A stretch of 64,000 nt of DNA from Psilocybe cubensis (Eukaryota). The stretch spans positions 3,162,001-3,226,000 of the forward strand of contig CM039000.1 in the NCBI GenBank assembly GCA_017499595.2, in the 5' to 3' direction. Within the stretch, counting starts at the first letter, position 1; every line of letters starts with the position of its first letter. The notes under the pieces were generated by a model. The model saw only the letters and a program-made list of their open reading frames with translations. It made no database searches and had not been told where the DNA came from. Shown in pieces: positions 45,380-63,412 of the stretch. The position numbers were made by a program, and so were the translations under genes.

Positions 45380-46295
45380 TAAATTTTCCATTTGATTTTT
45401 TTGCTCCCCATCTACTAGTTCTTTGTTTTTTCATACCTTTTCTAACCTGTCCCTTTATTTTGTCTGCTGGCACACGCATCCATTTTGGCTGTTTTAAACC
45501 CTTTCTTTCCCGTTTTTTTCTCGTGCTTTGTTGTTCATTTGGGCCTATATGCACGCTAATTCTTTGACTTTGCTACATTTACCACATCTTCATCGCAACC
45601 TTTATCGTCTCATATATCGGACTGAGACCTGTTTCTAACGATGGACACTCATTTTCTTTCTTTCATTGTTTCCTATCGCTACCAAAGCACACTCTAACCT
45701 TCTGGGTACCCTCGGCCACTGTTATAATCTACCGACCTGCATCTTCTTGACAACAGCCCTCTTAAACCCGCCTCGCTGTTGTCCAATCCACTTGCCACTT
45801 GTACCCCCGCGCCACACACATACGCACACGCACCCCATGCCTGCTTCGACTACCCGCCACACATCACCCTCGATACTAAAACTTTTCGCTGCCCCGGACT
45901 ATCTATTTTATTAATCCCTCTACTTCCTTCGATGGGTTGGGTTATGTTCTACGGATACCAGACAGACACATAGTGACGACCTTTTGATGAAATTTATAAC
46001 GGCTTTAGAGTTTTGGTTGTTCTTTGCTATTTCCTTTTCTTTGTGTGACACATGAGTGGCTAGGTCGTGGTTGTGGTCCAGCACTCAGGGCGATGATTGG
46101 CGTTTCTTCAGATGTACTTTTCTGCAAGTTTGCTTTGACCTTTCTTTAGGGTATATTAACTGTGGAGAATGGCCTGCTAAGTTTCTGATATTCCTCAACC
46201 TCATTTCTAGTAATCGAACTAGGTTGGTCTCCTTGCGCGCACACTTTTCCTTCAGCTGCTTACTTCGTACAAGTTAGGATACAGCACAAGCAACT

Positions 46296-47992
46296 ATGCT
46301 GACAGGAAATCGCAAGGCAGCCATTGAAAGGATACCCACAGAGATATGGACAGAATGCGCCGACCAGCTGTCTTTCAACGATCAGAAAAATTTGCTCCTA
46401 ACCTGTCAATTTTTCCGGGACGTATGCCTACGTTTCGTCTTCAAACACAAGTCATTTTATCTGCACGTCTGTAAAGACATGGGATCGGGCAACTGTTGCG
46501 GGCCATTCGCGAGCCGCGTGGAGAATGTGGCTTTGGTGGCCGATAGCAACGCCCTCGCGCCCCACGTCCGCAAGCTGACTCTGCGTTACGACCAAAGTCG
46601 TCCTCGTACCTTCTCCCATCAGCTTAAGCAGTTGTACCCGCTCTTCATTAAATCTTGTCTCGAGCTTATCCCGCGCTTTCCCAACTTACGCTCGGTTTAC
46701 ATCTCGAGCAACAAGCCCGTGGACAAAGCGTTGATGCATGCTCTCGCGCTGTGCCCTCAGCTTGATGAGCTTGGTATGGGCCCTGTTCGGTTCGGAGCGC
46801 ATTCATTGTCCAGGGGTGTGCGTCTGTGCGTCCGGAAGCTAGGGATATACAACAACTGCATCGGGTCCGATACCAATCCGAGAAAGGCTGCTAAGGTGCT
46901 TGACATGTTTTCGGGCGAGCGGCTGGAAAGGCTCGAGGTCTTGTCGCACATCTATGCGCCCAAGATCGCGCACGCTTTAGCCCGGCAGAGTAATTGTACT
47001 CGTTTGACATTCCTTCGCGTGAGGATTTCCCCTGAGGACTTTAAAACTTTCATCCCATTCCTGGTTTCCTGTGCAAATATCGAGGCATTGAGCGTGACGT
47101 TGCATGAAAGTCTGACTTGTAGGGACTCGGCATTTCCCCCTCACTCTTTCCCAAATTCGCTTCCTCAGCTCCCAACATCAGCACTAAGAAAGCTGAACTC
47201 TATCACCGGTTCGGGGGAGATAATTGCACTGATAGTTCCCGGAAGACGAGTGCAGAGTGTAACCACCTTGATCTCTAACCCCATGCCCCGCTTTATGAAG
47301 CTTGATCAGGGAGAATTTGAAGCTCTGGTCCTGCCTCGCCTTGTTGAAAGCAAAGGTCCGGTGAAAAGTTTGGTGCTTGAGGGAAATGTTTTCGGGAAAA
47401 ACATGTTGAACCCTATTTCACTGCGTATGCCGAGCCTGACTTCTCTCTGTGTGTGGCTCGGCGATGATTCTGGTGTCGACACCGACCCCTTCAAGGAGGC
47501 AACAGGAACCCTGGCCATTGTGCGCGAATATCTGGCGCACTGTAAAAACACTCCGGGAAACGAAGCGAAGGTGTTAACACCATTTGTGCGTCACAAAAAA
47601 TATTTGGTACGTCTTGCGATCCTCTGAAGTCCGCGTTTTCAACCATTTTATTCGCTTCATTCTAGATCATTCTTCATTTGATAGCATTAGGCAAGATACG
47701 ACTTCCACGCGACCTAGAACAGCTAGACTTGGTCGACAGGGCTTTTTCTGTTTCCTGGGAGCAACGTTTATTCCAGTGGGACCATTGCCACTTGATGAAA
47801 AGCGAAGAAACCCACGGAACAGCTTATTCATTAAATATGGTCAGCGCCATCTTCTTCGCGATATCTCGTATCTATCCGTCCTTCCGCCTGTTGAACTTGT
47901 CGGATCACGCTCCCGGACACGTTTACTTCTACTGGTACAAAACTCGCTCTGATAAATGGGACTTATGCGACTTCAAATGCGATGGTTATTGA
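46296..47992 (+). CDS. F-box-like / RNI-type LRR protein (paralog 2); intron ~47608-47665
   Basis: IERIPTEIWTECADQL...LLLTCQFFRDVCLRFVFK; collinear similarity to the 25896-27657 gene. Confidence 0.82.
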
Positions 47993-48105: not shown

Positions 48106-51100
48106 CACGGCCGGCCCTTCGTTTAGATCTTGGTTAAGATTCCGACGCTCCGACCAAACTTGAGATCATTCTCAAGAAAATCTCAAAACGGATGCAAATA
48201 CATTTGAAAATTGAGCTCAGGAATATTTTAAATCCGTGGCTTAAGAATGAGCGAAGTAAATACACAGAATAGATTTTACTTAACTCTTGTGCTCAACACA
48301 TTTTGAAACCACGCTCATTAAACATATTTCAATTGTAGCTCTGACCATAATGTCACAGCTTGATCCAAAAGGTGTGCGGGACTTATGACATCATGAAATT
48401 CACTCAACATTGCTTGACATTGTTTTAGTTTGGACTCAAAGCACTGCCGACAACGGTGATACTGTCTATTATTGCAAAGTGTGCTGCGATTCACGCGCCA
48501 GAAAGGCATTCAATTGCCCTGGACATGAACGCACTAGCACTCATCTTGCGGCACTAAGCCGGCAGCGGCAGCCAACACCAGCTAGTTCGACAATCAATGA
48601 AGTCCGCGGTAATCCCACGGCATCCATTTCCAACCACAGAATCATCGACGATGCTTTGAGAGCTCTTTTAGTTTCCTCTTCGTCAAATCCTCGCCAGCCT
48701 ATGTATTGCTTTGGCTGCCCTCCTCTTCAATCTGGAACTTCACATGCAACTCCGTCATCCCCTCCTCTTCAAGCTCCAACCCAGTCTGGCCCAGTTTCTC
48801 CTCTTACCGGCTTTGACTGGAATTTGTACAAGGCAACTCAAGGCAGTACAGATCCTGACCAAGAAGATGAGCCTACGCCTTGTATACGTGTTCGTGAAGG
48901 CGTATGTCAGCGGTTACTTGATCTACTAGATGGTGTTGAAGAAAATGATGACCCGGTAGGGGATATTTTGGTAGCCAGTGAGGAGTCGGACTCGAGTGGT
49001 GCGTGCTTTTTCTGCTGCATGTTTGGCCAACACTAAATACATTATAATGACACAGCTGATGATCTCCCCGCTCGTCCTTCAGTCAAAAAGCGTACACGAA
49101 CACAAAATTTGGATCCTAGGGAGCTGGAAGAATGGTATCCATGGCAGGATAGAATTGTGCGTTCAACTCTATTTTCTGCTCACCAATAAGCTGTTACTGA
49201 CACACTTTTAGACATGTTCTTTAGATATCTTGATGCACTTGCCCCGTTCTGTGTTTTCGCGTAAACAACTTGATTTATTTTTGTGGATTTTACGCGTGAA
49301 CGAAGTTCGGAATGTCCCCAGCATCAAGACTATGAAGACTCTAAATTCTGCACTTCAAAAAATGTGCGGCATTGATACTATTCCATATACAAGCGCCCGT
49401 GGCACAAATTACAGCATGAACAACATATCCCAAATTCTTGCCCAGGTTTGTTCATTAGTGAAATGTTGTGTTTGTGATTTGGTTATTTACCTGTGCCAAG
49501 TAGGAAATGAGCAATCCAAAAGTGCAACCACACCTGAGCTTTTTCCCAGAAGACACCGGCAAGTCCATCCAAGAAGCATGACAAGCTGCAAAATGGTTGC
49601 ACGAAATAATTCCTGAAAGAACGACACCCATGATACGGTTACACAATGCTGACTATTACATTTTTGAGCCGACTATGTTAAAAGATGGCTCATGTGTTAT
49701 TCCGTATCGGTGGTATGTCAAGAGCGGGCACATGTATGCGTGTTCGTGGGTCATGGAAAAGGAAACATCAGAAAATGGAACGGTTGGATGGGTTGTTCGG
49801 AAGGACCGTGAACGCACTATTTTTGATGATCAATTACTCAAGAATTTTCCTGCTCTTTGTCGCAATTGTGGCAGATATAGACTACCTCATCCTTCTCACA
49901 TCATTGGCATGTATTTCTCTACTATCTTAATATTAACATTTACTGACAACTTGCTAACTATAGGTATCCGAGAGGACCAACATCCCGAGATTCTGCCTTG
50001 GACACATACGGATCCTGCTACAGGTAATCGCTGGAGAAATTTGGCACAAGGTCACCGAACAGTGTGTCTTCCACTCTGGCTGTATTGCGATGACACATCT
50101 GGCAATCAGTCCAAGCAGTGGAACAAACATAACAGCTACTTATTTACCTTAGCTGGGTTGCCGCGTGACCAATTGGCCAAAGAATATAATATTCACTTCA
50201 TATGTACCTCAAATGTTGCACGGCCTCTCGAAATGTTGGAAGGAGTTGTTAACCAAATAAAGTAAGCATCTCATTTTGATATTTTGCGCGGCGCGGGTAT
50301 GAAGTATGGCTGAAATCCTCTTAGGTCAGCTCAAGAGACAGGTATATGGGCCTGGGACTGTGTATATAACGAAGTGGTGCTTGCGTATCCAGCAGCATTT
50401 GCTTTCTTAGGTGATAACCCAATGCAGAGTGAGTTTGCCTGCCATATAGGTATGTGCGGCAAGCTGTTCTGTCGGGTATGCTGGGCAAAGGGCCAGGATG
50501 GAAGTGAAACAAATGTTGATCTTTCTGACCTGTCCAATGTTCCAGATTTTAATCAGTCACCATTGTACAGTCCTGTTGCTTCAGAAAATGGAGGCGAGAG
50601 CATACCACACAGTCCAGCTACTTCTGATCATCAAGATGATGTAGCAGTCAGTCGAAAACGCAAGCCAGAAAGCATGGAATCAATGGTCAAACGTATTACA
50701 GCTTTTTTAGAGGTAAGATTTCTTGTTTTCAGTTGACGGTCTATTTACAACTAACAAAACTTTGCTAGACTGGCAGGTTGCGATGCAAACAAGAGACTAT
50801 ACAAATATTGCAGTCCTATCTCAATTTAGCATCCAGTATTGGCTCCAAAACCAAGCTCAAAACCGAGAAAACAAAGACCGGTATCAAGGACACTTACCAG
50901 GATTTCTTTCTTGAGAAGTTACTCACGTCGTACACAAAGGAAAAGGGGCCGATGAAAAAGCAAGCTGCGCTTGATGAAGCAATACAAAATCTACCGGATG
51001 ATATCACAAGCCCAATTTGGGATTTGGACGGTATGGACTTGTTTCTTTGATAGTCTCCTTCTCAGCACTAATGTTTGGTATTTAGAAATCGATCCACATC

Positions 51101-52412
51101 AAGACACACCAGTTGAAATACTTCATGTTGTTTTGCTGGGTTTTGTGAAGTATTTTTGGCGTGACCTTGTTCAAAACCAGCTTAACGATGAAGGCAAAAA
51201 GCTGTTAATTCAGCGACTCAACAGCTTTGATGTCCGTGGCTTGGGTATATCACCCCTTGGTGGTAAGACCTTGGTCCAGTATGCTGGTTCTCTCACTGGC
51301 CGGGATTTCCGAGCGATATTGCAAGTGGCACCTCATGTCATTTACGATCTTGTTCCCACCAATGTCTTTGACGCCTGGGTGTCGCTTTCAAGACTTGTTC
51401 CACTTATCTATCAGCCCAAAATTGACGATATGGACAAATATCTTGTGAATAAGTTTCTTTTTTCACATCTGCCAGAATGTTCTAACAGTTCATACATTTA
51501 GGAGACTCTAGCACAAGAAGTGGATTCATTTTTGATTAGTACGGCTCAATGGACATGTGCTTGGTTTAATAAAAAGAAGTTTCACGTCTTGTTGCACTTG
51601 GTAGAACATGTGCGACGGTTTGGTCCTGCAATCATATTTGCTACTGAATCTTTTGAATCATTCAATGCAGTGATTCGAGCTAAAAGTATTCATAGCAATC
51701 GCCAATCCCCATCGCGAGACATTGCCATGGCTTTCGCCGAAGGCAATTGTATCCGACATTTACTGAGTGGTGGGCTCTTTCTCCAGAATCGCCATCGTGA
51801 CATCCAGCATACTACTGCCAGAGATTGGCGAAGCATTGGTCCAGGCCCAAACAGAATTATTGCCATTGATACAATTATTCCCAGCTATCTTGGGCTAATG
51901 GCTGCCACCGATCCGTTATTTTCATCGGGTATGTTGTTCTATTTATGCATATGAATACTGTTAATCTGACCATGTAATATTAGGACGATGTATAGTCGAT
52001 AAAACCCCTCCCAGGCCTCTTACGCAAACTCTTACTGGCACACTCCTTCCCAATGTTGCCCTCGGAAACCACTCATTTCAAACCTGCAAGCAAGTTCAAC
52101 TCGAAAACGGCGAAAATTGTGAACCAGGACAGTACGTTATAGTGCAGGCACGTCAGCCCAATGGCGCACCTCGAGCACCCTTTGTTGCCTGTGTTAAGGA
52201 AATCGTACTGCAGCTGGGATCAAGCAATAGTGCCAATGGATATCCCGAAGGCCTACTGTTGCAGTCAGTGTCTACAAACCAGGTTAACAGCAAGCTTCAA
52301 ATGCCTTCTCTGATGCCTCTGGAAGATACCTGGTCATTCCTTCCTCTCTCGGTATGTGCAGTTTATACAAAGGTCTTGTACTATTTCATTGTGTACTAAT
52401 CATCTTCATCAG
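48106..52412 (+). mobile_element. CACTA/CMC-like DNA transposon remnant, 3'-truncated; left boundary tentative
   Basis: Contains the transposase pseudogene; candidate CAC terminus at 48106; subterminal hairpin CTTGAGA-TCAT-TCTCAAG (48159-48176). Confidence 0.6.
48350..52412 (+). pseudogene. Multi-exon basidiomycete CACTA/CMC-like DDE transposase, disabled
   Basis: N-terminal CxxC..H..H; LYCDDTSGNQSKQWNKH; FLGDNPMQSEFACH...FCRVC; DTPVEILHVVLLGFVKYFW; KFHVLLHLVEHVRRFGPAIIFATESFESFN. In-frame TGA at 49579-49581; coding similarity ends at ~52412. Confidence 0.8.
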
Positions 52413-52666
52413 GAAAATGGTGTTTGGTTACAAGTTGTTCTAAGTAAATAGTATATTGCTAAAGATACTTTTAGTCTTTGGAATGACCTAGGTAGCTTTG
52501 AGAGCTTTGGAAATCTTTGAAATTACCCAGGTTGCTTTAGTGTCTTTAGGTAATATATTACATCTAGACTTTCCTAAAGTAGTTAAAGTAATTTTAATTT
52601 CTTATTACACTTTAGACTGTGTTAAAGATTCTAAACTAATAAACAATATTTCAATATATATACATA

Positions 52667-55600
52667 CTACCAAATTGTCTGATATGTATATTTGCTCATC
52701 CAATTGTTAATTAGAAAAGCATCTGCAGTATCTAAAATATTATCAGCTGACCAATGAGCAGGTACTAAGGGTACAACCAGTTTTTGACCCTCCCTAATTA
52801 AAGGAAAATTAAAATGAGGAATAAGCATACAATTCTGACGTATATTAGCCAGTGGAATTATAGCACCCTTGGCTCTTGAAGGGGTAGTATTTGTTGTAAT
52901 TTTTGTTATGCGGTACATCATTCCATGATTTTTTTTTGCAATATGTGATAAAGGTGAATACCATTCAACATAAGCCAAAGGAATAGTAGGCCAGGCATCA
53001 GGTGCCGGAAGAGAACCAATATAAGTTTGTATAGTTTTTGGAAGTGTAAAAATCACTCGAACATGTCCAATCTTGGTTCCTATAAAATATAAAATATTAT
53101 ATTATATTGTAGCAATTTTTGAATCTGATTATACCTTGAAGTCCTGTAGATTCTGCATCCTCACTGGTAATTGCAACAATTGTATCAAATTGTCCAGATG
53201 GCAATTTTGCAGATTTAGGAATAGCTTTAACTATAGCCTTTTCATCCGAGTCTTGATCATCATTAATCAATTCTAGATGAAGACGAAACATATTGTAGAC
53301 ATCAAGCTTTTGAAAAGGAAGAGGTATATTATCCAGATTCCGAAGGATAGTAGGATTTGACGAAAATGTGTTCAGGAAAACCTTTAAATAATATGAAAAA
53401 TCTGGTGCCATATGCTTTTCCTCAATCAAATCAATACGCTGATTTATAAAATTAGGCTTTTTGGCAATTGATATTGGCAGTTTGGATATTGTCAAAGATT
53501 TTGGAAAAGGCAATGAATGATTAGACACAGATGATGACAGTAAAAGAGATGGTGGATTCATTGTAATATCTCCATCCTTATCAATGCTAGTTGATTGTGC
53601 TCTATCCATTGATTCTAAGGAAAGCTCCTCCTGATATCCCGTAAATCCTGCAATTTTCTCCCGTCTTGATAACCAGTTAATCATTTGTGGAAATTCATCC
53701 TTTTGATTTGAAGCTCTCCATCCTTGTTTAGCAAAATCAATATGAAGACGCTCAAACATCTCTGTATTATAATTGTCCGTAGTTCCAAACTGCTCTATTG
53801 CCTCAACATAGTGTATAAGGGAGTGAAATTTAGGAATATTGAAATCTTTGCGTGCATTGATATCCAAAAAATAATGGCGATATTGATGGAAACGTACAAG
53901 AGAGTCTTGAAGATAGCCAAGTGTGACTTTATTATGAGTAGAATATTGAGCAATATAAATAAAATCCAATATTGCAGTAACTGCATAAATTCCTTCATTA
54001 GGCATAGAACCAACTAAACATCCCAAAAGAATCTTTGCCATCTGCTTTCTCTCACTGCCAGAGACTTGAGACAATGCAGAAATGCCATTCTTAAAACGCC
54101 GAACACCATATGCTATTGGTAAGCATCGTATGCGCTGATCTAATTTTGACGGTGATAAGGCTTTCTGGCACCAAACTACCAGATGTTTAAAGACTCCTTG
54201 GTAAAGTTGATGAAGAACATCTGGAGTAATAGCTCGGTGTATATCTGCAAGAGGAAATCCATCCCAAAATGGCTTATAGACGCTTCCAGCAACATTGTAA
54301 CTCATGCAATAGTCATGAAAAGAGTTTGATCTGCCGTTTGCCTGATGCTTTCCCTCTTCTATAATAGTAGTAGTCCATTTTTGTGTTCGAGGAGTATGTG
54401 AATTGATTTGGCCCAAATCTGTAGCTGGAGCCTGGCATTTTACACATGTTCCATACTTGGTGCAGGTAACCAAGCATTGTTCAGGATAGTCTGCAACATA
54501 ACATGTAAGAATAGGATGAACCTTTCGAATAGCACCATCGCAGCTGGCCATTTCAACTCCATTATTACCAGCATCTATCAAGGGCAAAAGAACAATACGC
54601 ATAGATTCATGAAATAGACGTTGAATGCGAGAGCGGTGTTGCTGATCATTCATCATGGTTCTATCAAGTTTTTCAACTGATAGATACGCAATTAGAATAC
54701 AGGCATGTTTAGATGGCTTTCTTCGAATAGCTTTTGGAATGTTTCCAATAGTAAGATAGACGGGGTATGCAGATTTTCCACCAGAGAATTGAGTGAGTTG
54801 TGTTTTATCTGTTGCAATAATTATAGGTGCAACCGTTGCACCTGATGGAAGTTTTGACTATAAACCATTATAAATTAACAAATATTACTTTAAAAATGCA
54901 GTAAAATATACCTGTATGGCGTGCCACCATTTTCCAGTCCACATTTCAGAGAATATGCGATTTTTATCTTCAACGTTGCCCGAAAAAACTTTTGCAGGTT
55001 GATACACCATACTTTTAGATAGCTGAGGATCCTTCCATAGGCTTTTAACAGCCTCAACTGGGTTTCGATAGCGTATAGTAAAAGTTTCTTCAAGGCGGTC
55101 TTTAAAAGCAAGCTTTCGCACTTTCCATTTTCCAGCCTTGTCTGGCATAGTATCCAATTTTTTATGAAGGCTTCGAACATTCTTGAATGATAGTCCAAGC
55201 TTTTCAACAACCTGTCGCTATTATCAATATATAAAATAATAATAAAATGCATAGAAATACTCACACCTGGTATTTGAAGTAAGCGATCAATTGCATTTTG
55301 ACCTGGTCCATCCATTACTGCCCACCGAGCTACTTTCCAGTCAAGCTCTGATGCAAATGGAATGAAGCGGTTGGTTCTAGTATCACCAAACTTTTGTTTT
55401 GTATTATAGCTTGGAGGATGGTCCTGACGGATAATAGTTCCAGCATGCTTGGTCCATATTGTTGTCCTATCATCATCATTATCATCCAAGGTGTGTAATG
55501 TGCGCAACCGATTTGCAGTAGTCTGGGGACCTGGGCCAGCTTCTGCGTTGTCATTTTCAAGATTGGCTGGAGTATTGGGAATAAAATGAAACTCTGTTTG

Positions 55601-55924
55601 ACTTTCTTCAGCACCGAAAATGTCGACGTCGGAATATTTACGCAAAAAATCATCCCACTCCTCATCATTGTTGCTCCCAACCTCTTCATTGCTCCGATCA
55701 TTCAAGCTATCTTCCTCGTTATTGCCATCGCCATTGCGCAATAGGGCTGCCATTTCATCATCCATAAAGATGTCGCGATTAGTCAATACATCTTCATAAC
55801 TACCCAAATCTCGCAATTTTCCCTTCATATACCAAGAACATGTTTTCGATGTACTGAGATGGGAATTGAGCCCACTGAGTGTTTTGAACCATTTAGAGCA
55901 GGACGCTTCGCACTGAAAACTCAT
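52667..55924 (-). CDS. Plavaka transposase (CMC superfamily), 4 exons, apparently intact
   Basis: N-terminal CEASCSKWFKTLSGLNSHL; PFASELDWKVARWA; RIFSEMWTGKWW; APIIIATDKTQLTQFSGGKSAYPVYLTIGNIPKAIRRKPS; YVADYPEQCLVTC...CVKC; DVLHQLYQGVFKHL; PKFHSLIHY...FGTTDNYNTEMFERLHIDFAK; LAYVEWY. Confidence 0.93.
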
Positions 55925-56140
55925 ATGGACTAGAAAGTGCAGAGGGGAGAATCAGAGTTGATATCGTGAGAAGAGAAAGAGAAAGAAAGAGATAGAAAAT
56001 ATTGATCAATCAGACGCAACGTGTGTGAGAACAAGGTGATATTTATAAAATCCTATAATAACATGTTAAATTGAATAAATACCTGTCGATATGATATTAG
56101 AGACTGTATAGGAAATCAGAAAGAAAACATACTGATTAAG

Positions 56141-56944
56141 CTAAGAAAAAGCTGTTGTCATTTTTAATAATAATCCATATTCCTGCAGCATTTGCTCTTG
56201 AAGCGTAGCAAGCACCGTAATATCTCGACCAAGTCGTCTAGCTGCCTTGAGTACTTCTGCAGTCGATTTTTTTGTCTTGCAAAAGGCCCTGACAGATTGG
56301 AGCTTGCGATGTACAGAAACAAGAAATGGTGTCTTGTACTTGCAGAATATTTTTTTACGACAAAGCATTTTGAAAGGATAGTATCGGATATCTTTCGTAT
56401 TCCTTGCAATACCTGCGCTTGGTTTGGCTAGAAGCAGCTTGGATACGAAGGGTGTTTCTTCTCTAGTGCTCTCAATAGATGCATGTAGTGGAGATGCCAA
56501 ACTGTAGATTGGACTATCCAAACGCTGTGCACAAGTTGTTGGATAAGAATACGTTGATTTTTGGGAAGGTGTTAGAGAAACATCTTTTGCAGATTTTGCA
56601 TTTGGAAGAGTCTGTCCCAATTAGCAATAAGTACCAATATTAAATCAAGTCAAATTAAAGATGTGCGACGTGCCTCTAAATACTTGTAAATCCGTCTATG
56701 ATGAGCGTGCATTTTCTTTAAAGATGGCAATTTTTTATATTTTGTCCAGTATCGCACATCAAATGTATAAGCAGATACAGGTGCCCTTCTACGTGTAACA
56801 GAAGGCTAAGCAGATATAATGAGATAGGACGGAAAGAGAATAAAAATAATGCTTTACCTCTTCTTCACCGTTTACAGATGAGTCGACAATATCGGAATAT
56901 GCAAGCTCCTCTATAGAAGATGTGCCAGGTGATGACAAGTGCAT
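56141..56944 (-). CDS. Orphan basic protein, 3 predicted exons, next to the Plavaka transposase
   Basis: MHLSS...NGEEE|PSVTRRRAPVSAYTFDVRYWTKYKK...KYLE|TLPNAK...; introns 56806-56857 (GT-AG) and ~56612-56673 (needs a GC donor). Confidence 0.5.
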
Positions 56945-57159
56945 AATAGTAGGAAGAGGTTTAGAAAGAATAATAACAACCACTCAGTAAAACTAGAATG
57001 CGTGAAGGATGAACGTATAGAAGCAGAGTAATGAGGTGTGGGAATTATTAGCGGCAAAAATGAATGTGTTACCGTTGGTTTGTTGTGGCTGTACACACTC
57101 AACTTCTTCTCGAAAACACACTCTTTTATACAAACTATCTGTAAATATTCTAATCAGCC

Positions 57160-58294
57160 ATGCTAAATCCATTTCTATGGGCAAAACAGAAGCTTAGAAA
57201 TGGTTTCAAGACTATAATTTCAAAATTTTCTTTACAAAACAGTCAATATGGCAAGGCGCCGTTAAATCAACATTATCATATAGCTCGGCGTATTCAGAAC
57301 TTTCAGCTAGCAGAAGTTGCATTAATGGCTGGCAGCCAGATTTCTGACTCCTCAATGGTTTTAAATGGTATGTTGTATTGCATCTACCTATATTTCTGTT
57401 AATTTTTTTCAAATATAGATGCTATGGAATATATCGAACATGGCGTCAAATATTCAACAGGAACCCTTACTATTCCTCAGCAAAATCTTCTTGCTGTAGT
57501 ATATAAAAAGGGAACATTACCTATTATCAGCCTTAGTCAAACTCTTGGCAACCTTACGCACTCTGCAACCCAATCTTCATACCCGGATCAACGTCTTGTA
57601 AAAATGTATCTTCGATCTGTTATCCACAAGGCAGTTGAACGCTCTATTCATCTTCTTATTCTTATCGACAACAATATTTGGCCATTTTTGGAAACAACTG
57701 AAGAAATCCTTTTCTTTCTCAAATTGTATGTCGTCATATTCATAAACGATAAAACTTTTTGGTAGACTAACAAATATTCAATAGGAAGGCTGACATTAAT
57801 CGCCATTTATTTGAACTGGGTAGAAATCAAGAAGGGCACAATAGGCAGCTTGAACGCAGAATTAACGCGTACTTACTATATCAACAAGCAAATCAGAATG
57901 CGCAAGAGGCTCTGCATCCATTTCATTCCCTACGACTATCCATTACTCTTCGCTTTTGCATTTTTTTACACAAATTCTATGATTCAACTCCTCATGCCAA
58001 GGAAAAAGCTTTAGCCGCATTTGATCATGCAGTTTTCCATATTTCCAGTTACTGTTCAATGTCCCCAAAATCGGAAAGCTTTATGCTTTTAAAGCTTATT
58101 TTGGATAGCCTCAAAGTATGGGGATTAGGAGAAATACCTCTTCGTCATAGACATTCTACATATCAAGCTCTTTGCAGTAAGTTCAGTGTTTTCAACTACT
58201 GCAATCCTCAACTGACTAATCTCTATGTCTAGTAAAATATGGCATCACTAAAATTGATATAGAAACGGCAACACTTGCAGAGGGTAACCATTGA
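57160..58294 (+). CDS. Highly divergent 14-3-3-like protein; exons 57160-57367, 57419-57725, 57785-58177, 58233-58294
   Basis: LTIPQQNLLAVVYKK (cf. LTVEERNLLSVAYKN); FFLKLKADINRHLFE (cf. FYYKMKGDYHRYLAE); LHPFHSLRLSITLRFCIF (cf. LPPTHPIRLGLALNFSVF); ALAAFDHAV (cf. AKQAFDDAI); ESFMLLKLILDSLKVW (cf. DSTLIMQLLRDNLTLW). No stops after splicing. Confidence 0.85.
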
Positions 58295-58426
58295 GAGTAC
58301 TTACTATTTGATACGTCTTAAATTTTGTCAATTTCTAATTAATTACTTGGATTATTTGAATAATATAATTGAAAACAACATAGCTGAAATTAAGCGAGCA
58401 TTAATAAACAAATAATTACAGCCCTT

Positions 58427-58493
58427 CCTTTTTAGGACCAAAAATAAGTGTTAGGAGATGCATCTCCCATCGCTCATTTTGGTCCTAAAAAGG
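58427..58493. repeat. 67-bp near-perfect palindrome
   Basis: CCTTTTTAGGACCAAAA ... TTTTGGTCCTAAAAAGG (17-bp perfect arms) with core GGAGATGCATCTCC. Confidence 0.9.
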
Positions 58494-58550
58494 CAAAAAG
58501 AAAAATCCTCTTCTCATAAATGTATTCTAGAAAAAACAAAGACATTTACA

Positions 58551-59577
58551 TTACGGAAATTCATTATCAGAATTAAAGTAATCCCAGTCACATTCATCCA
58601 TAGTGGAATATGGATAAGAATATCGGTAAGGATCTGTTGGATGAGCTGGGAAAAAAATGAATGTCGATGGTCGAAGATGCACCTGAGTCCACTTATTGTC
58701 CTCTAAAGTACGCCAAATTAGCTCATTAGAGCCCTCCCAATAATAATCCTCGATATAAGAATCCTCGTCGTGACCCTGAAATAGATAAAATTTCAAGAGA
58801 CGCGGCAAAGATTTCAATTCCCATTCTCCTAGAATTCTTTCTACTGTGGGCTTGAGCAGATAACTGTCTTCAGGTTCCAATGGCAACGGTGTCTTAAAAA
58901 GAAACATTTCCAAGGCTGTGCAGCGAGACAGCATTTCTTTCCATTGGGGAGACTCCCATGGACGATAAGCGTGGTTCTGTTTTATATCCTAAAACAAAGA
59001 TTAGTAAATCAGTATAAACAGTTGAAAGCAACATACCTCTTTCATAGAAACAATATATTTGTACCAAAATGTAACAATTTGGCCTAATATGCCTCTCCAG
59101 CTATCGTCGACAAGGTTTGAAACTGCATTCCTGCATGTTCCACCATGGACATTGAGCTCCGTAATTGACGATAGGGATAGTACTGTTCCAAGCTCTTTAC
59201 AAAGAGCAGCAGACTGCGGCAAATTGACTTCAACCATACGAAGCCCCAAAAACGAAATGCCCAAACGTCCTTAAAATACGGCATGAAAGGCCTTGAAATC
59301 CCGGACAAAGAGTTTGATTGCTTTCTGCTTGGCAAGGACACGATGGCATTTTTGATTGCCTACAAATGCCCGACATTCTTTTCCAGAATAAGAGAAAAAT
59401 TCATCGAAGTCATCGTGATTTTCTGGCATACTTGCAAGAAAGAATTTAAGAATTATTTTGCGAAGCTCTGGTGCTACTAGATTAATATTGATCAAATTAA
59501 TAACCCTAGGACACTCCACTATATTATTTAGACACTCACATTGTTCAATTTCTGCCTCTAAAGTCTTGGCGCTCATT
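58551..59577 (-). pseudogene. F-box-like/LRR-like gene with one in-frame stop
   Basis: LVAPELRKIILKFF (F-box-like start), SSITELNV, LSRCTALEMFLF; TAA at 59271-59273 splits two same-frame ORFs; intron near 58990-59036. Confidence 0.5.
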
Positions 59578-60144
59578 GCAGTCTGAAGTAGCGATGCTGA
59601 TGCCAATCAATGGTTGTACTGACACTTTAAAGCACAAAGATGCAGGCCTAAGATAGTAAAATTATGAGTCTATACAACAAAAATTTAAAACAGAACAATT
59701 ACCAGAAAGTTTGATTAAGTTGTAAGAGGTTGGAGCGAGAATTACAACCAAGAAAGAGTTCAAGCACCGTAGCATTGATGTCAGCGGTTACCTGTAAACA
59801 GATTATATAATACATCCTAATTTAGAACAAACAAACGTTGGAAGATGCGTCTTCAATTGAATCTATTCTCCATTGTCCCATCTTGAATACGGTATGTCAG
59901 TGCTATACCTTTTGTTGATAAAGCTTAACACTTACTCTTGCCACTTAGGTTATAGTGTTTTATTGGGTCTAACATGCAGCAGTAATGTGCAAGATCCACT
60001 ATTTAGTGCAATAATTGCATATTTGACAATCCATGCTATCGTAAATAAACCGCTCACTGGTATGTCAGACCTATATTTCCAAATGATACTGTTAAGCACT
60101 CAGTATTTCCCTTTAGACTAGCAAACTGCATTGACCATGGTTTT

Positions 60145-60731
60145 TGGGAAGCATTAGTACAAATTGCACTTAAAAGCACCGGCATTTTTATTATTTTGGC
60201 GCAACTGCAATATCCATTCTCAAGAACCTTGGTTTACTAGGGCGTCAGGCACTTTACCATTCTCAATCCACTAGCAGTCACACCTGAGAATGTAGGAAAT
60301 AACTTCTTCCTCACACGCTGGCAGGAAAGGATTGGCTGGGAGAGTTCACGCTGGAAGAGTTCACGCTTATAATTACTGCTAATCTAGAGGAAGGGTTACT
60401 GGAGAGACTGGCGGCAGTGTTGTGGAAGGAGGAATGTTACCCTCTACTAGTTGTGGTGCGCTTTCTGCAGGATTCCTTGCAGAATTCTATATCTAGTACC
60501 ATGACCATACAGGTGTGAATTATTCATGCTAATTTTTTTGCGACTATGCTCACCTTTATCAGTTATTGAAAGTCATTTGAAGACTGCACAATCATTTCAA
60601 ATCAACAGACCATTTGCCGCACTGCTAGATTATTCAATGTTGCTCGATTTTGAAAACATAGACATGACTGATCCCGAATGACCACGTCCCTTACGTTGTT
60701 ATCCTTGTACGCTGAAGAATAGAAGAAATCA
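60145..60731 (+). pseudogene. ULA1: Degraded fragment of NEDD8-activating enzyme E1 regulatory subunit (Ula1/APP-BP1)
   Basis: Across frameshifts: WEALVQIALKST; ATAISILKNL; HFTILNPLAVTPENVGNNFFL; FTLIITANL...LAAVLW...YPLLVVVR; SAGFLAEFYI*YHDHT|VIESH; RPFAALLDYS; DHVPYVVILVR. Intron 60513-60562 is retained. Confidence 0.8.
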
Positions 60732-61230
60732 GTAAGCTTATGCTCTCATTTTTTTCAGTTTTGCTGACAGCATGTAGTACCACAGGCTTCTGCCTGACTT
60801 CAACCCCAAAAAGCCACTAATTCAATTGAAAAGCCTAAGGCGCTGGTGTATTATGCATGGACAAAAAGTATGCTACCCTCTGAGACAAAGAGATGGGCAG
60901 CATGGTGAGAACAGTGAAGCTTTGGGTATGTATATAGTGTTTTGTTATTAAAATGTGGTTCTAAATAGGTATGCCTATAGCAGTACGCAAACAACCTCTG
61001 AACAACTGGCGATACGTCTGGCTGTACACCTTCCGCTGAGCGCCCTATCAAACTTTACGACTAAACAAAAAACATCTGGCCAAACATTATCAGTTGAGGC
61101 AAATTTGAGGGGCGTAGGTGTGTCAATTACAGTGTGCATATGTTTTGCTAGGCTTACCTTCTTAGCATAGGATGGGCATGGCGAGGAATGAAAGGCTTGC
61201 CGCCATGATTTCAGAACCGGGATATTTCCA

Positions 61231-61289
61231 TATTGGGACAAAGGTGAATTTGGGAGATGCGTCTCCCAGATTTTCCTTTGTTCCTAATA
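61231..61289. repeat. ~59-bp imperfect palindrome with core GGGAGATGCGTCTCCC
   Basis: TATTGGGACAAAGGTGAATTTGGGAGAT..GTCTCCCAGATTTTCCTTTGTTCCTAATA. Confidence 0.85.
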
Positions 61290-61561
61290 CGGAAATCACC
61301 ACGTGCACTGCACAATCATATCAACGATTCACCTTAAGTCAACTGGCAGTACAAGCAGACCATCTTGTGCATTTCCGCCTCCACAACCATAACTTTCTTG
61401 AGTCTGATAAGCAGTTATGCTACTTGTTGGTCTCCTCACCCCTTCATTTGCTTCAAGTTGACTAACCCCCCCTTGGACTTTAGGCTGCCCGTTTGATGCC
61501 TCTCTGTTACCACTGGCCGTTAGGTTAACAAGCACTCACCCCCATCCATCCACTTCAAGTT

Positions 61562-63090
61562 GATGAGCAGACTGAGCTGCTCATCTTTTTTTTTACCGCC
61601 GCCACCACCCTGTCTGATGTTGTTGGGCAGCTGAGCTGCCCATCACCACACACTTCAATGCAACGTCTTCCTCCTCACCCCCATCCACCAGCTTCAAGTT
61701 GACGAGCAGCTCATGCTGCTCGTCTTTGCTTTTTGCCGCCGCCACCGTCGTCTGATATCAATCGGCAGCTCAGGACTGCCATCTGACATCTTTCAATCAC
61801 GACCACTACTGCCCTGGACTGCTCACCCCCGTCCATCCACTTGAAGTTGATGAGCAGGGTGAGCTGCTTGACCTTTGTTTTCTCCACCACCACCACCATC
61901 TCACTGCCACCACCTCTATCAGAAGTAGATGGGCAGCTATGGCTGCCCATCCGACATGCCTCCATCGCCACCGCCGCCGCCCTTCAGTTTGACGAGCAGC
62001 TTGCGCTGCTCGTCTGTCTCCTCACCCCATCCTCCCTCTTCCAATCGACGAGCAGCCTGTGCTGCTCGTCCTCGGTTTTTCCGCCACCACCACCTCCATC
62101 TGACGTCAACGGGCAGCCTGAGCTGCCCGTCTGACGTGTTGCCGTCGCCGCCACCGCCGCCCTTCACTTTGACGAGCAGCCTGTGCTGCTCGTCTTTCTT
62201 TTCACCCCACCCTCCCTCTTCCAATCGACGAGCAGCGCAGGCTGCTCGTCCTTGCTTTTTCCGCCACCACCACCTCGATCTAACGTCAACAGGCAGCCTG
62301 AGCTGCCCGTCGACGTGTTGCCATCGTCACCGCCGCCGCCGCCCTTCCCTGTTCACCCCACCCTCCCTCTTCCAATTGACGAGCAGCGCAGGCTGCTCGT
62401 CCTCGGTTTTTCCGCCACCACCAACTCCTTCTGACGTCAACGGGCAGCCTGAGCTGCCCGTCTGACGTGTTGCCGTCGCCGCCACCGCCGCCCTTCACTG
62501 TTCACCCCACCCTCCCTCTTCTAATCGACGAGCAGCCTGTGCTGCTCGTCCTCGGTTTTTCCGCCGCCACCACCTCGATCTAACGTCGACGGGCAGCTCA
62601 GGCTGCCTGTCAACGTGTTGCCATCATCACCGCCGCTGCCGCCCTTCCCTGTTCACCCCACCCTCCCTCTTCCAATCGACGAGCTGCGCAGGCTGCTCGT
62701 CCTTGCTTTTTCCACCACAACCACCTCCTTCTGACGTCGACGGGCAGTCTGAGCTGCCCGTCTGATGTGTCGCCATCGCCACCCCTCAGTCTGACGAGCA
62801 GGTTGCGCTGCTCGTCTGTCTCCTCACCCCATCCTCCCTCTTCCAATCGACGAGCAGCCTGTGCTGCTCGTCCTCGGTTTTTCCGCCGCCACCACCTTGA
62901 TCTAACGTCGACGGGCAGCTCAGGCTGCCTGTCGACGTGTTGCCATCGTCACCGCCGCCGCCGCCCTTCCCTGTTCACCCCACCCTCCCTCTTCCAATTG
63001 ACGAGCAGCGCAGGCTGCTCGTCCTCGGTTTTTCCGCCACAACCACCTCCTTCTGACGTCGACGGGCAGTCTGAGCTGCCCATCTGACGT
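61562..63090. repeat. GC-rich tandem array (~150-bp higher-order unit) containing ~20 24-bp stem-loops
   Basis: Alternating GACGAGCAGC-N4-GCTGCTCGTC and GACGGGCAGC-N4-GCTGCCCGTC, e.g. at 61701, 61991, 62047, 62108, 62171, 62227, 62378, 62439, 62527, 62588, 62849, 62910, 63000, 63061. Confidence 0.95.
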
Positions 63091-63412
63091 GTTGGTTATG
63101 AGGATGGTTAACGTGCTGGATGTCCGTGTTGTTGGTCTGTATTTATCCCCTTCACATTCTTAGATTTCTCAATTGACCACCTTTTCCTGGGCCTGCAGAG
63201 ATAACAGAGAAATACTGCTTGTTATTGTCCTTAGTCCTGCCAACACCACCCTCCTCAATTTGATTATCCGCTCATTTCTGCTTTTGCATTCCCTAATGGT
63301 TAACACTTCCTTGGTGTATTATCTCTTATTTGGACATGGTCACATGATGACATGTGCACTACTCGGGCAATCTGTTGCGATAACGGATCTTTGTTTGTTA
63401 CCACCATCTACC

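Follow-up and report, generated by a model that had tools for sequence, protein, structure and literature searches.

A divergent 14-3-3-like gene with an altered binding groove beside a Plavaka-type transposase gene in Psilocybe cubensis

14-3-3 proteins are among the most conserved proteins of eukaryotes, and the canonical members are highly similar to one another. In the numbering of the zeta isoform, residues K49, R56, R127 and Y128 bind phosphate, and N173 and N224 hold the peptide backbone. A second described system that bears on the present locus is that of gene cargo in the DNA transposons of fungi, where TET/JBP dioxygenase genes are carried by Plavaka, KDZ, EnSpm and Helitron elements; this cargo is reported to recur across numerous copies and families, in each case between defined termini that are flanked by target-site duplications (PMC12730594). 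For PlavakaB elements the termini are given as 5'-CATCA..TGATG-3', with target-site duplications of 2-3 bp (PMC12730594).

Here we describe a 14-3-3-like gene of Psilocybe cubensis at 57160-58294 (+) of a window of 64,000 nucleotides (the whole stretch of DNA analysed, from contig CM039000.1), where it lies next to a Plavaka-type transposase gene. Its product is predicted to share the all-helical fold of the canonical 14-3-3 proteins (human epsilon, zeta and beta; yeast Bmh1), and its homology to them extends across essentially the whole domain. In contrast to this overall likeness, the product is only 21-27% identical to 50 aligned canonical sequences, its C-terminal tail of ~38 aa is non-homologous, helix A of the canonical proteins has no recognisable counterpart, and the gene is without orthologues in an exhaustive HMMER protein search. 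Like the TET/JBP cargo, it is a non-transposase gene next to a Plavaka transposase, and the neighbouring element has a CATCA terminus as in PlavakaB, the subgroup reported to carry TET/JBP genes (PMC12730594). Unlike that recurrent cargo, the 14-3-3-like gene is present in one copy, is without relatives in the protein databases and lies beside an element for which no right terminus is defined.

The gene is read from four GT-AG exons on the forward strand, which join into a single open reading frame of 969 nt (322 codons and a TGA stop) with no internal stops. Exon 1 (57160-57367) starts at the first in-frame ATG and has no Pfam match alone. Exon 2 (57419-57725) covers positions 13-115 of the Pfam 14-3-3 profile (21.7 bits alone) and carries the K49 equivalent and the R56-to-I change; exon 3 (57785-58176) covers positions 116-222 (49.2 bits alone), with R127 kept and the changes Y128H, N173R and N224S; and exon 4 (58233-58294) encodes a short tail unrelated to 14-3-3 before the stop. 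The three introns are 51, 59 and 56 nt long, with donors GTATGT, GTATGT and GTAAGT, and all of the acceptors are TAG.

Two database models of this gene exist for P. cubensis. NCBI holds a product of 236 aa under the name "14-3-3-like protein" (XP_047752028.1 / KAH9484403.1), and UniProt one of 257 aa, A0A8H8CND5 (P0002), as a "14-3-3 domain-containing protein"; the latter is identical (100%) to the product of the window from the Met of MVLN onwards, through the same three introns. Both models begin at the ATG at 57356 (MVLN...), 196 nt downstream of the ATG at 57160. They part over an in-frame GT..AG stretch of 63 nt (21 codons) at 58032-58094, treated as an intron by NCBI and retained by UniProt. 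Without this stretch the Pfam score is 77.0 bits as against 88.1, and the match ends at profile position 194 of 223; when the stretch is retained, the helix 8-9 region of the profile is matched again. As the retained form scores higher, an unbroken exon 3 is the better reading of the gene. The sequence-only reading had put forward the association of the gene with its neighbour as one that is not known to have been described. The gene model itself is already catalogued as 14-3-3-like in both databases, and neither name reflects the lost binding residues; in the literature, of which our coverage is incomplete, no paper came to light that connects 14-3-3 genes with Plavaka or with Psilocybe, and none on the capture of 14-3-3 genes by transposons in Agaricomycetes.

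Membership of the 14-3-3 family is indicated by sequence and by predicted structure alike. A0A8H8CND5 scores 88.1 bits against the Pfam 14-3-3 family (PF00244; E 8.4e-25, gathering cutoff 33.2) over positions 12-222 of 223, and 123 distinct 14-3-3 sequences of the PDB match it at E <= 0.001, the best at 6.8e-17. Modeling with AlphaFold from the single sequence gave a poor, unusable result (pLDDT 45.2). A model built on a 51-row alignment, consisting of A0A8H8CND5 and 50 canonical 14-3-3 matches from the exhaustive HMMER search, reached a pLDDT of 88.3 and a pTM of 0.87, values that rely on the canonical sequences. Foldseek matched the alignment-based model to the PDB 464 times at E <= 0.001; every match listed is a 14-3-3 protein, the best being 2bq0_A (TM 0.77/0.86, rmsd 1.8 A). 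An independent model of the protein in the ESM Atlas (pTM 0.81) matches a 14-3-3 cluster at TM 0.75/0.85. The four-exon frame and the 14-3-3 fold that had been read from the letters are thus both borne out, the former by 322 stop-free codons and the Pfam match, the latter by the alignment-based model, its match to 2bq0_A and the ESM Atlas model. Judged by profile match and predicted structure, the gene is a true, intact and very divergent member of the 14-3-3 family, whose helical fold appears to have been retained.

The divergence falls heavily on the binding groove. Residues were called by alignment to human 14-3-3 epsilon (8dp5_D), in the numbering of A0A8H8CND5, and are given here with the zeta positions to which we take the epsilon positions to correspond. 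K34 (epsilon K50, zeta K49) and R113 (epsilon R130, zeta R127) are kept, and I41 (epsilon R57, zeta R56), H114 (epsilon Y131, zeta Y128), R163 (epsilon N176, zeta N173) and S215 (epsilon N227, zeta N224) are changed; the residue calls made earlier by hand were correct at every one of these positions. Replacement has therefore affected two of the four phosphate-binding residues (R56 and Y128) and both groove asparagines. Among the 50 canonical sequences, R56 is R in 96%, Y128 is Y in 98%, N173 is N in 100% and N224 is N in 92%. There are 45 columns conserved in at least 80% of the canonical sequences, and A0A8H8CND5 keeps 25 and changes 20 of them. The changes that set the product apart from the canonical proteins include R56I, R60Q, Y125I, Y128H, N173R, E180K and N224S; the kept columns are mostly core Leu, Ala, Phe and Trp, together with K49, K120, D124, R127, E131 and W228, which the product has in common with the canonical proteins. 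From the residues in the groove we infer that the canonical phosphopeptide clamp has been lost, and that phospho-Ser/Thr clients would not be clamped in the canonical manner.

The N-terminal part of the domain has also departed from the family pattern. A profile of the 50 canonical 14-3-3 sequences aligns the spliced product from residue 60 only, at profile position 15, and the dimerising helix A is therefore unrecognisable with either start codon. By this alignment the canonical dimer helix has probably been lost too.

By a codon-table reading, one C-to-T or G-to-A step would be enough for roughly 8 of the 20 replacements in the conserved columns. The idea that a canonical copy was ruined by a RIP-like process was considered as the whole explanation and set aside, since R56I, Y128H, N173R and N224S need other changes.

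Searches for relatives point to a singleton. Of the 678 matches found at E <= 0.001 by the exhaustive HMMER search, which covered 1.84 billion representatives, 30 reached E <= 1e-10 and one, the gene itself, reached E <= 1e-30. The runner-up is an ordinary 14-3-3 protein at 26% identity (E 1.6e-19). The ten best other matches include a dinoflagellate, three plants, a lancelet, a duck and one russuloid fungus, a canonical fungal 14-3-3 accounting for only one of the ten; all ten are ordinary 14-3-3 proteins that keep R56, Y128, N173 and N224, except that two tandem proteins have W in place of Y128 in their second domain. Word-based searches for close relatives recovered only the gene's own model, XP_047752028.1, both with exon 3 among longer proteins (1 of 175 candidates) and with A0A8H8CND5 among proteins of similar length (1 of 416), and with exon 3 among proteins of similar length the single candidate was not a relative (0 of 1). 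In a metagenome scan none of 96 pattern matches was confirmed. As far as the protein databases show, the 14-3-3-like gene is a singleton of one species.

The Plavaka-type transposase gene lies at 52667-55951 (-), ~1.2 kb from the 14-3-3-like gene, on the opposite strand and in divergent orientation. Its open reading frame at 53100-54857 (-) matches Pfam Plavaka (PF18759) with 298.5 bits and DUF6830 with 35.7 bits, which confirms the neighbor named by the sequence-only reading. That reading had also spoken of decaying neighbors, and for the transposase this does not hold: its frames of 353, 110, 586 and 144 aa are open and exon-like, probably joined by short introns, and the gene looks from its frames like a largely intact, intron-bearing one.

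The transposase gene, the 14-3-3-like gene and some broken open reading frames make up the contents of an AT-rich, CpG-depleted block at 52407-60779 (GC 0.372, CpG observed/expected 0.62), which is colinear in three other strains; in the first 48 kb of the window CpG observed/expected is 0.81-1.15. The two genes are nearly equal in composition (GC 0.363 and CpG observed/expected 0.68 in the 14-3-3-like gene, 0.376 and 0.58 in the transposase gene). At its start, 52407, the block reads CATCAGG. The CATCA at 52407-52411 coincides both with the published PlavakaB terminus and with the exact point at which the contigs of the three other strains diverge, and it is thus taken as the probable left end of the element, of PlavakaB type.

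A right end could not be placed. The 108 TGATG sites of the window were compared with the reverse complement of the left end, and the best of them lies inside the transposase gene; the 12 of these sites that fall between 55000 and 64000 offered no convincing partner, and a scan of 52300-61300 for inverted repeats gave short, weak pairs only. No TGATG end with an inverted repeat or a target-site duplication was found flanking the 14-3-3-like gene. One site, 61615-61619, has TT after it, matching the two bases that precede 52407, but it falls within GC-rich tandem repeats, and its likeness to the left end goes no further than CATCAG.

Several further features of the surroundings may be recorded. 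To the left of the element, 48389-52406 (+) has open frames of 134-227 aa and looks like the intron-bearing transposase gene of a second element; none of these frames scores above a Pfam gathering threshold (DUF702 reaches 18.0 bits against a cutoff of 20.6), and one stretch of 31 aa is 48% identical to the Plavaka open reading frame. In the other strains the contigs extend beyond 52406 into sequence that the window lacks, so that this second copy appears to be cut off at the Plavaka end. Further to the left, the open reading frame at 46278-47627 (+) has a weak F-box match of 20.1 bits, just below the cutoff of 20.5. To the right, a perfect inverted repeat of 17 bp with a loop of 33 nt (CCTTTTTAGGACCAAAA / TTTTGGTCCTAAAAAGG) stands at 58427-58493, ~130 bp past the stop of the 14-3-3-like gene. 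Beyond it, 58551-59606 (-) contains broken frames of 145, 89 and 111 aa, which have no Pfam family and may be the remnants of a decayed gene. The region 61500-63100 is a GC-rich tandem array with units of ~150 and ~300 nt, several frames of which are open as Pro/Ser-rich open reading frames, and its units carry perfect short palindromes, for example GACGAGCAGC...GCTGCTCGTC.

The stretch 52000-61000 was compared at a likeness of at least 85% with three runs from other strains (X1, X2 and X3), which hold 41-47 million letters each and behave as DNA assemblies; each run yielded three matching contigs. X1 carries 52407-61000 on one contig with 54 differences from the window, and X2 and X3 carry 52407-58814 on one contig with 132 differences and 58809-60779 on a second. 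In each run a single contig spans both the transposase gene and the 14-3-3-like gene, from which it follows that the two are colinear and occur once per strain at this level of likeness. The match to the window breaks off at precisely 52406/52407 in X1, X2 and X3 alike, beyond which their left flanks differ from the window, and the flank of X1 differs from that of X2 and X3 as well; three 30-nt loose-end sequences of these strains, sought in the window with up to 3 mismatches, had 0 matches each. On the right, the four strains share one and the same flank, and hence no insertion polymorphism places the 14-3-3-like gene inside or outside an element.

The break of X2 and X3 at 60779 was considered as an end of the element and rejected. 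By eye the loose end resembles the window near 60999-61028, which suggests a deletion of ~220 bp at 60779. The same two strains have a 2-base deletion at 58499 and a break at 58809-58814, where their contigs overlap by 6 bases and the loose ends begin with TGTCAGGG and end with CCCTGAC; this break lies inside the minus-strand open reading frame of 145 aa at 58551-58988 and looks like a polymorphic insertion that neither the window nor X1 carries, probably of LTR type with a short target duplication.

Comparison of the coding sequence within and between strains gives a divided picture of constraint. The GC content of the three codon positions (GC1 0.486, GC2 0.341, GC3 0.297, with intron GC at 0.295) is the pattern that a long period of coding constraint leaves when silent sites are in mutational equilibrium, and coding constraint over the long term still shows. 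Although 24 codons are one transition away from a stop, none is converted in the frame of 322 codons, and no indel or frameshift occurs in the 14-3-3-like gene among the variants listed for the three strains, which also fits selection for an open frame.

The variants themselves are of another kind. Among those listed, which from their order seem to be complete for X1 up to 58625, X1 differs from the window at 38 places in 52407-58625, with 7 in the coding sequence of the 14-3-3-like gene and 0 in its introns. Y39H, Y81C, M272T, L317L and the replacement of stop 323 by R are common to X1, X2 and X3 in this list, and R144H and G189R occur in X1 only. The coding changes listed for X1 thus comprise six in sense codons, five of them nonsynonymous and one synonymous, and one stop-loss. 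The stop codon is thus polymorphic: where the window has T at 58292, the three other strains have C, giving CGA (Arg) and an extension of 9 codons. Some 66% of the possible transitions in the coding sequence alter the protein, and at this rate the probability of at least five nonsynonymous changes out of six is 0.34 under neutrality, 0.028 at an omega of 0.3, 0.008 at 0.2 and 0.0006 at 0.1, for a sample as small as six. Again among the variants listed, X1 shows 7.2 variants per kb across the coding sequence, as against 5.9 per kb elsewhere and 6.7 per kb across the transposase gene. Five sites set the window apart from all three runs; at three of them the window has a CpG-to-TpG change, one of which created its stop, and 50 of the 56 differences of X1 are transitions; CpG-to-TpG changes with an excess of transitions are the mark of deaminating methylated DNA. 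The earlier suggestion of selection on the gene therefore stands for the long term, where GC1 and GC2 are set apart from a GC3 close to the GC of the introns, and does not extend to the divergence between strains, with its five nonsynonymous changes in six and its polymorphic stop. From a coding sequence as variable as its surroundings, present constraint would appear to be weak or absent.

Several accounts of the origin and role of this gene can be weighed against these data. The reading that we prefer, at a probability of roughly 60%, is that of a lineage-restricted, groove-degenerate duplicate of a host 14-3-3 gene that is drifting in a transposon island, with a link to the transposon that is positional only. 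That there is no gene at all, only a chance open frame or an annotation artefact, deserves next to no credence: the database models do differ over one intron and the start codon is uncertain, but a Pfam score of 88.1 bits against a cutoff of 33.2, the match of two successive exons to consecutive halves of the profile and 322 open codons despite DNA of 36% GC all speak against such a frame, which the exon and Pfam matches together with the Foldseek fold match effectively refute. A functional host gene that has been neofunctionalised as a phosphate-independent 14-3-3-like binder, under continuing and perhaps diversifying selection, is a possibility that we take seriously without favoring it. It would account for the open frame with its three canonical short introns intact, the coding-typical composition of the codon positions, the freedom of the gene from indels in three strains (among the variants listed) and the retention of the structural core with K49, K120, D124, R127 and W228, and an excess of protein-changing variants is also expected from diversifying selection. 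It has to contend with a singleton that has no orthologue in the predicted proteomes searched, a stop codon that is polymorphic, a coding variability that equals that of the flanking DNA, an unrecognisable helix A and surroundings that are CpG-depleted and rich in transposons.

The sequence-only reading had taken the gene to be transposon-borne, and we consider it unlikely that it is the cargo of a PlavakaB-type element, encoding an accessory protein that acts as an adaptor, a decoy or a heterodimer poison. Such cargo is suggested by the transposase gene 1.2 kb away on the opposite strand, by the AT-rich, CpG-depleted composition that both genes share, by the coincidence of the PlavakaB terminus CATCA at 52407 with the breakpoint of three strains, and by the precedent of TET/JBP as a second gene in Plavaka and other fungal DNA transposons (PMC12730594). 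Against it, the three strains hold one copy each and no second one at a likeness of at least 85%, relatives are absent from the protein searches and the metagenome scan, and the right end of the element is unplaced, the gene being flanked by no TGATG end, inverted repeat or target-site duplication that we could find; the right flank is common to four strains, with no insertion polymorphism that includes the gene, and the variation between strains bears no sign of constraint. A fuller version of the same idea, in which PlavakaB captured a host 14-3-3 gene as an accessory, a phosphate-blind shell that binds the transposase or disturbs host dimers, and in which the present locus is the last, ageing survivor, seems to us very unlikely.

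Our comparative data, coupled with the profile searches and structural models, suggest a model for the history of the gene as a drifting host duplicate. A host 14-3-3 gene would have been duplicated, and the duplicate, in single copy and restricted to the lineage of P. cubensis, would have stayed a coding gene through most of its existence. At present it may drift under weak or no constraint, eroded by CpG-to-TpG decay, in what appears to be a methylation-scarred, CpG-depleted island beside an old, single-copy element of PlavakaB type. The protein, if it is made, would be at most a phosphate-independent helical binder and not a standard 14-3-3.

Should the gene be transposon cargo after all, a signalling scaffold would join the short list of cargo genes of fungal DNA transposons. 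For Psilocybe, the gene is not to be counted as a working 14-3-3 isoform. For the 14-3-3 family, the apparent retention of the fold at ~25% identity, despite the replacement of both groove asparagines and of half the phosphate clamp, highlights how far the scaffold can drift, and the protein may be used to separate the residues that are needed for folding from those that are needed for the binding of clients.
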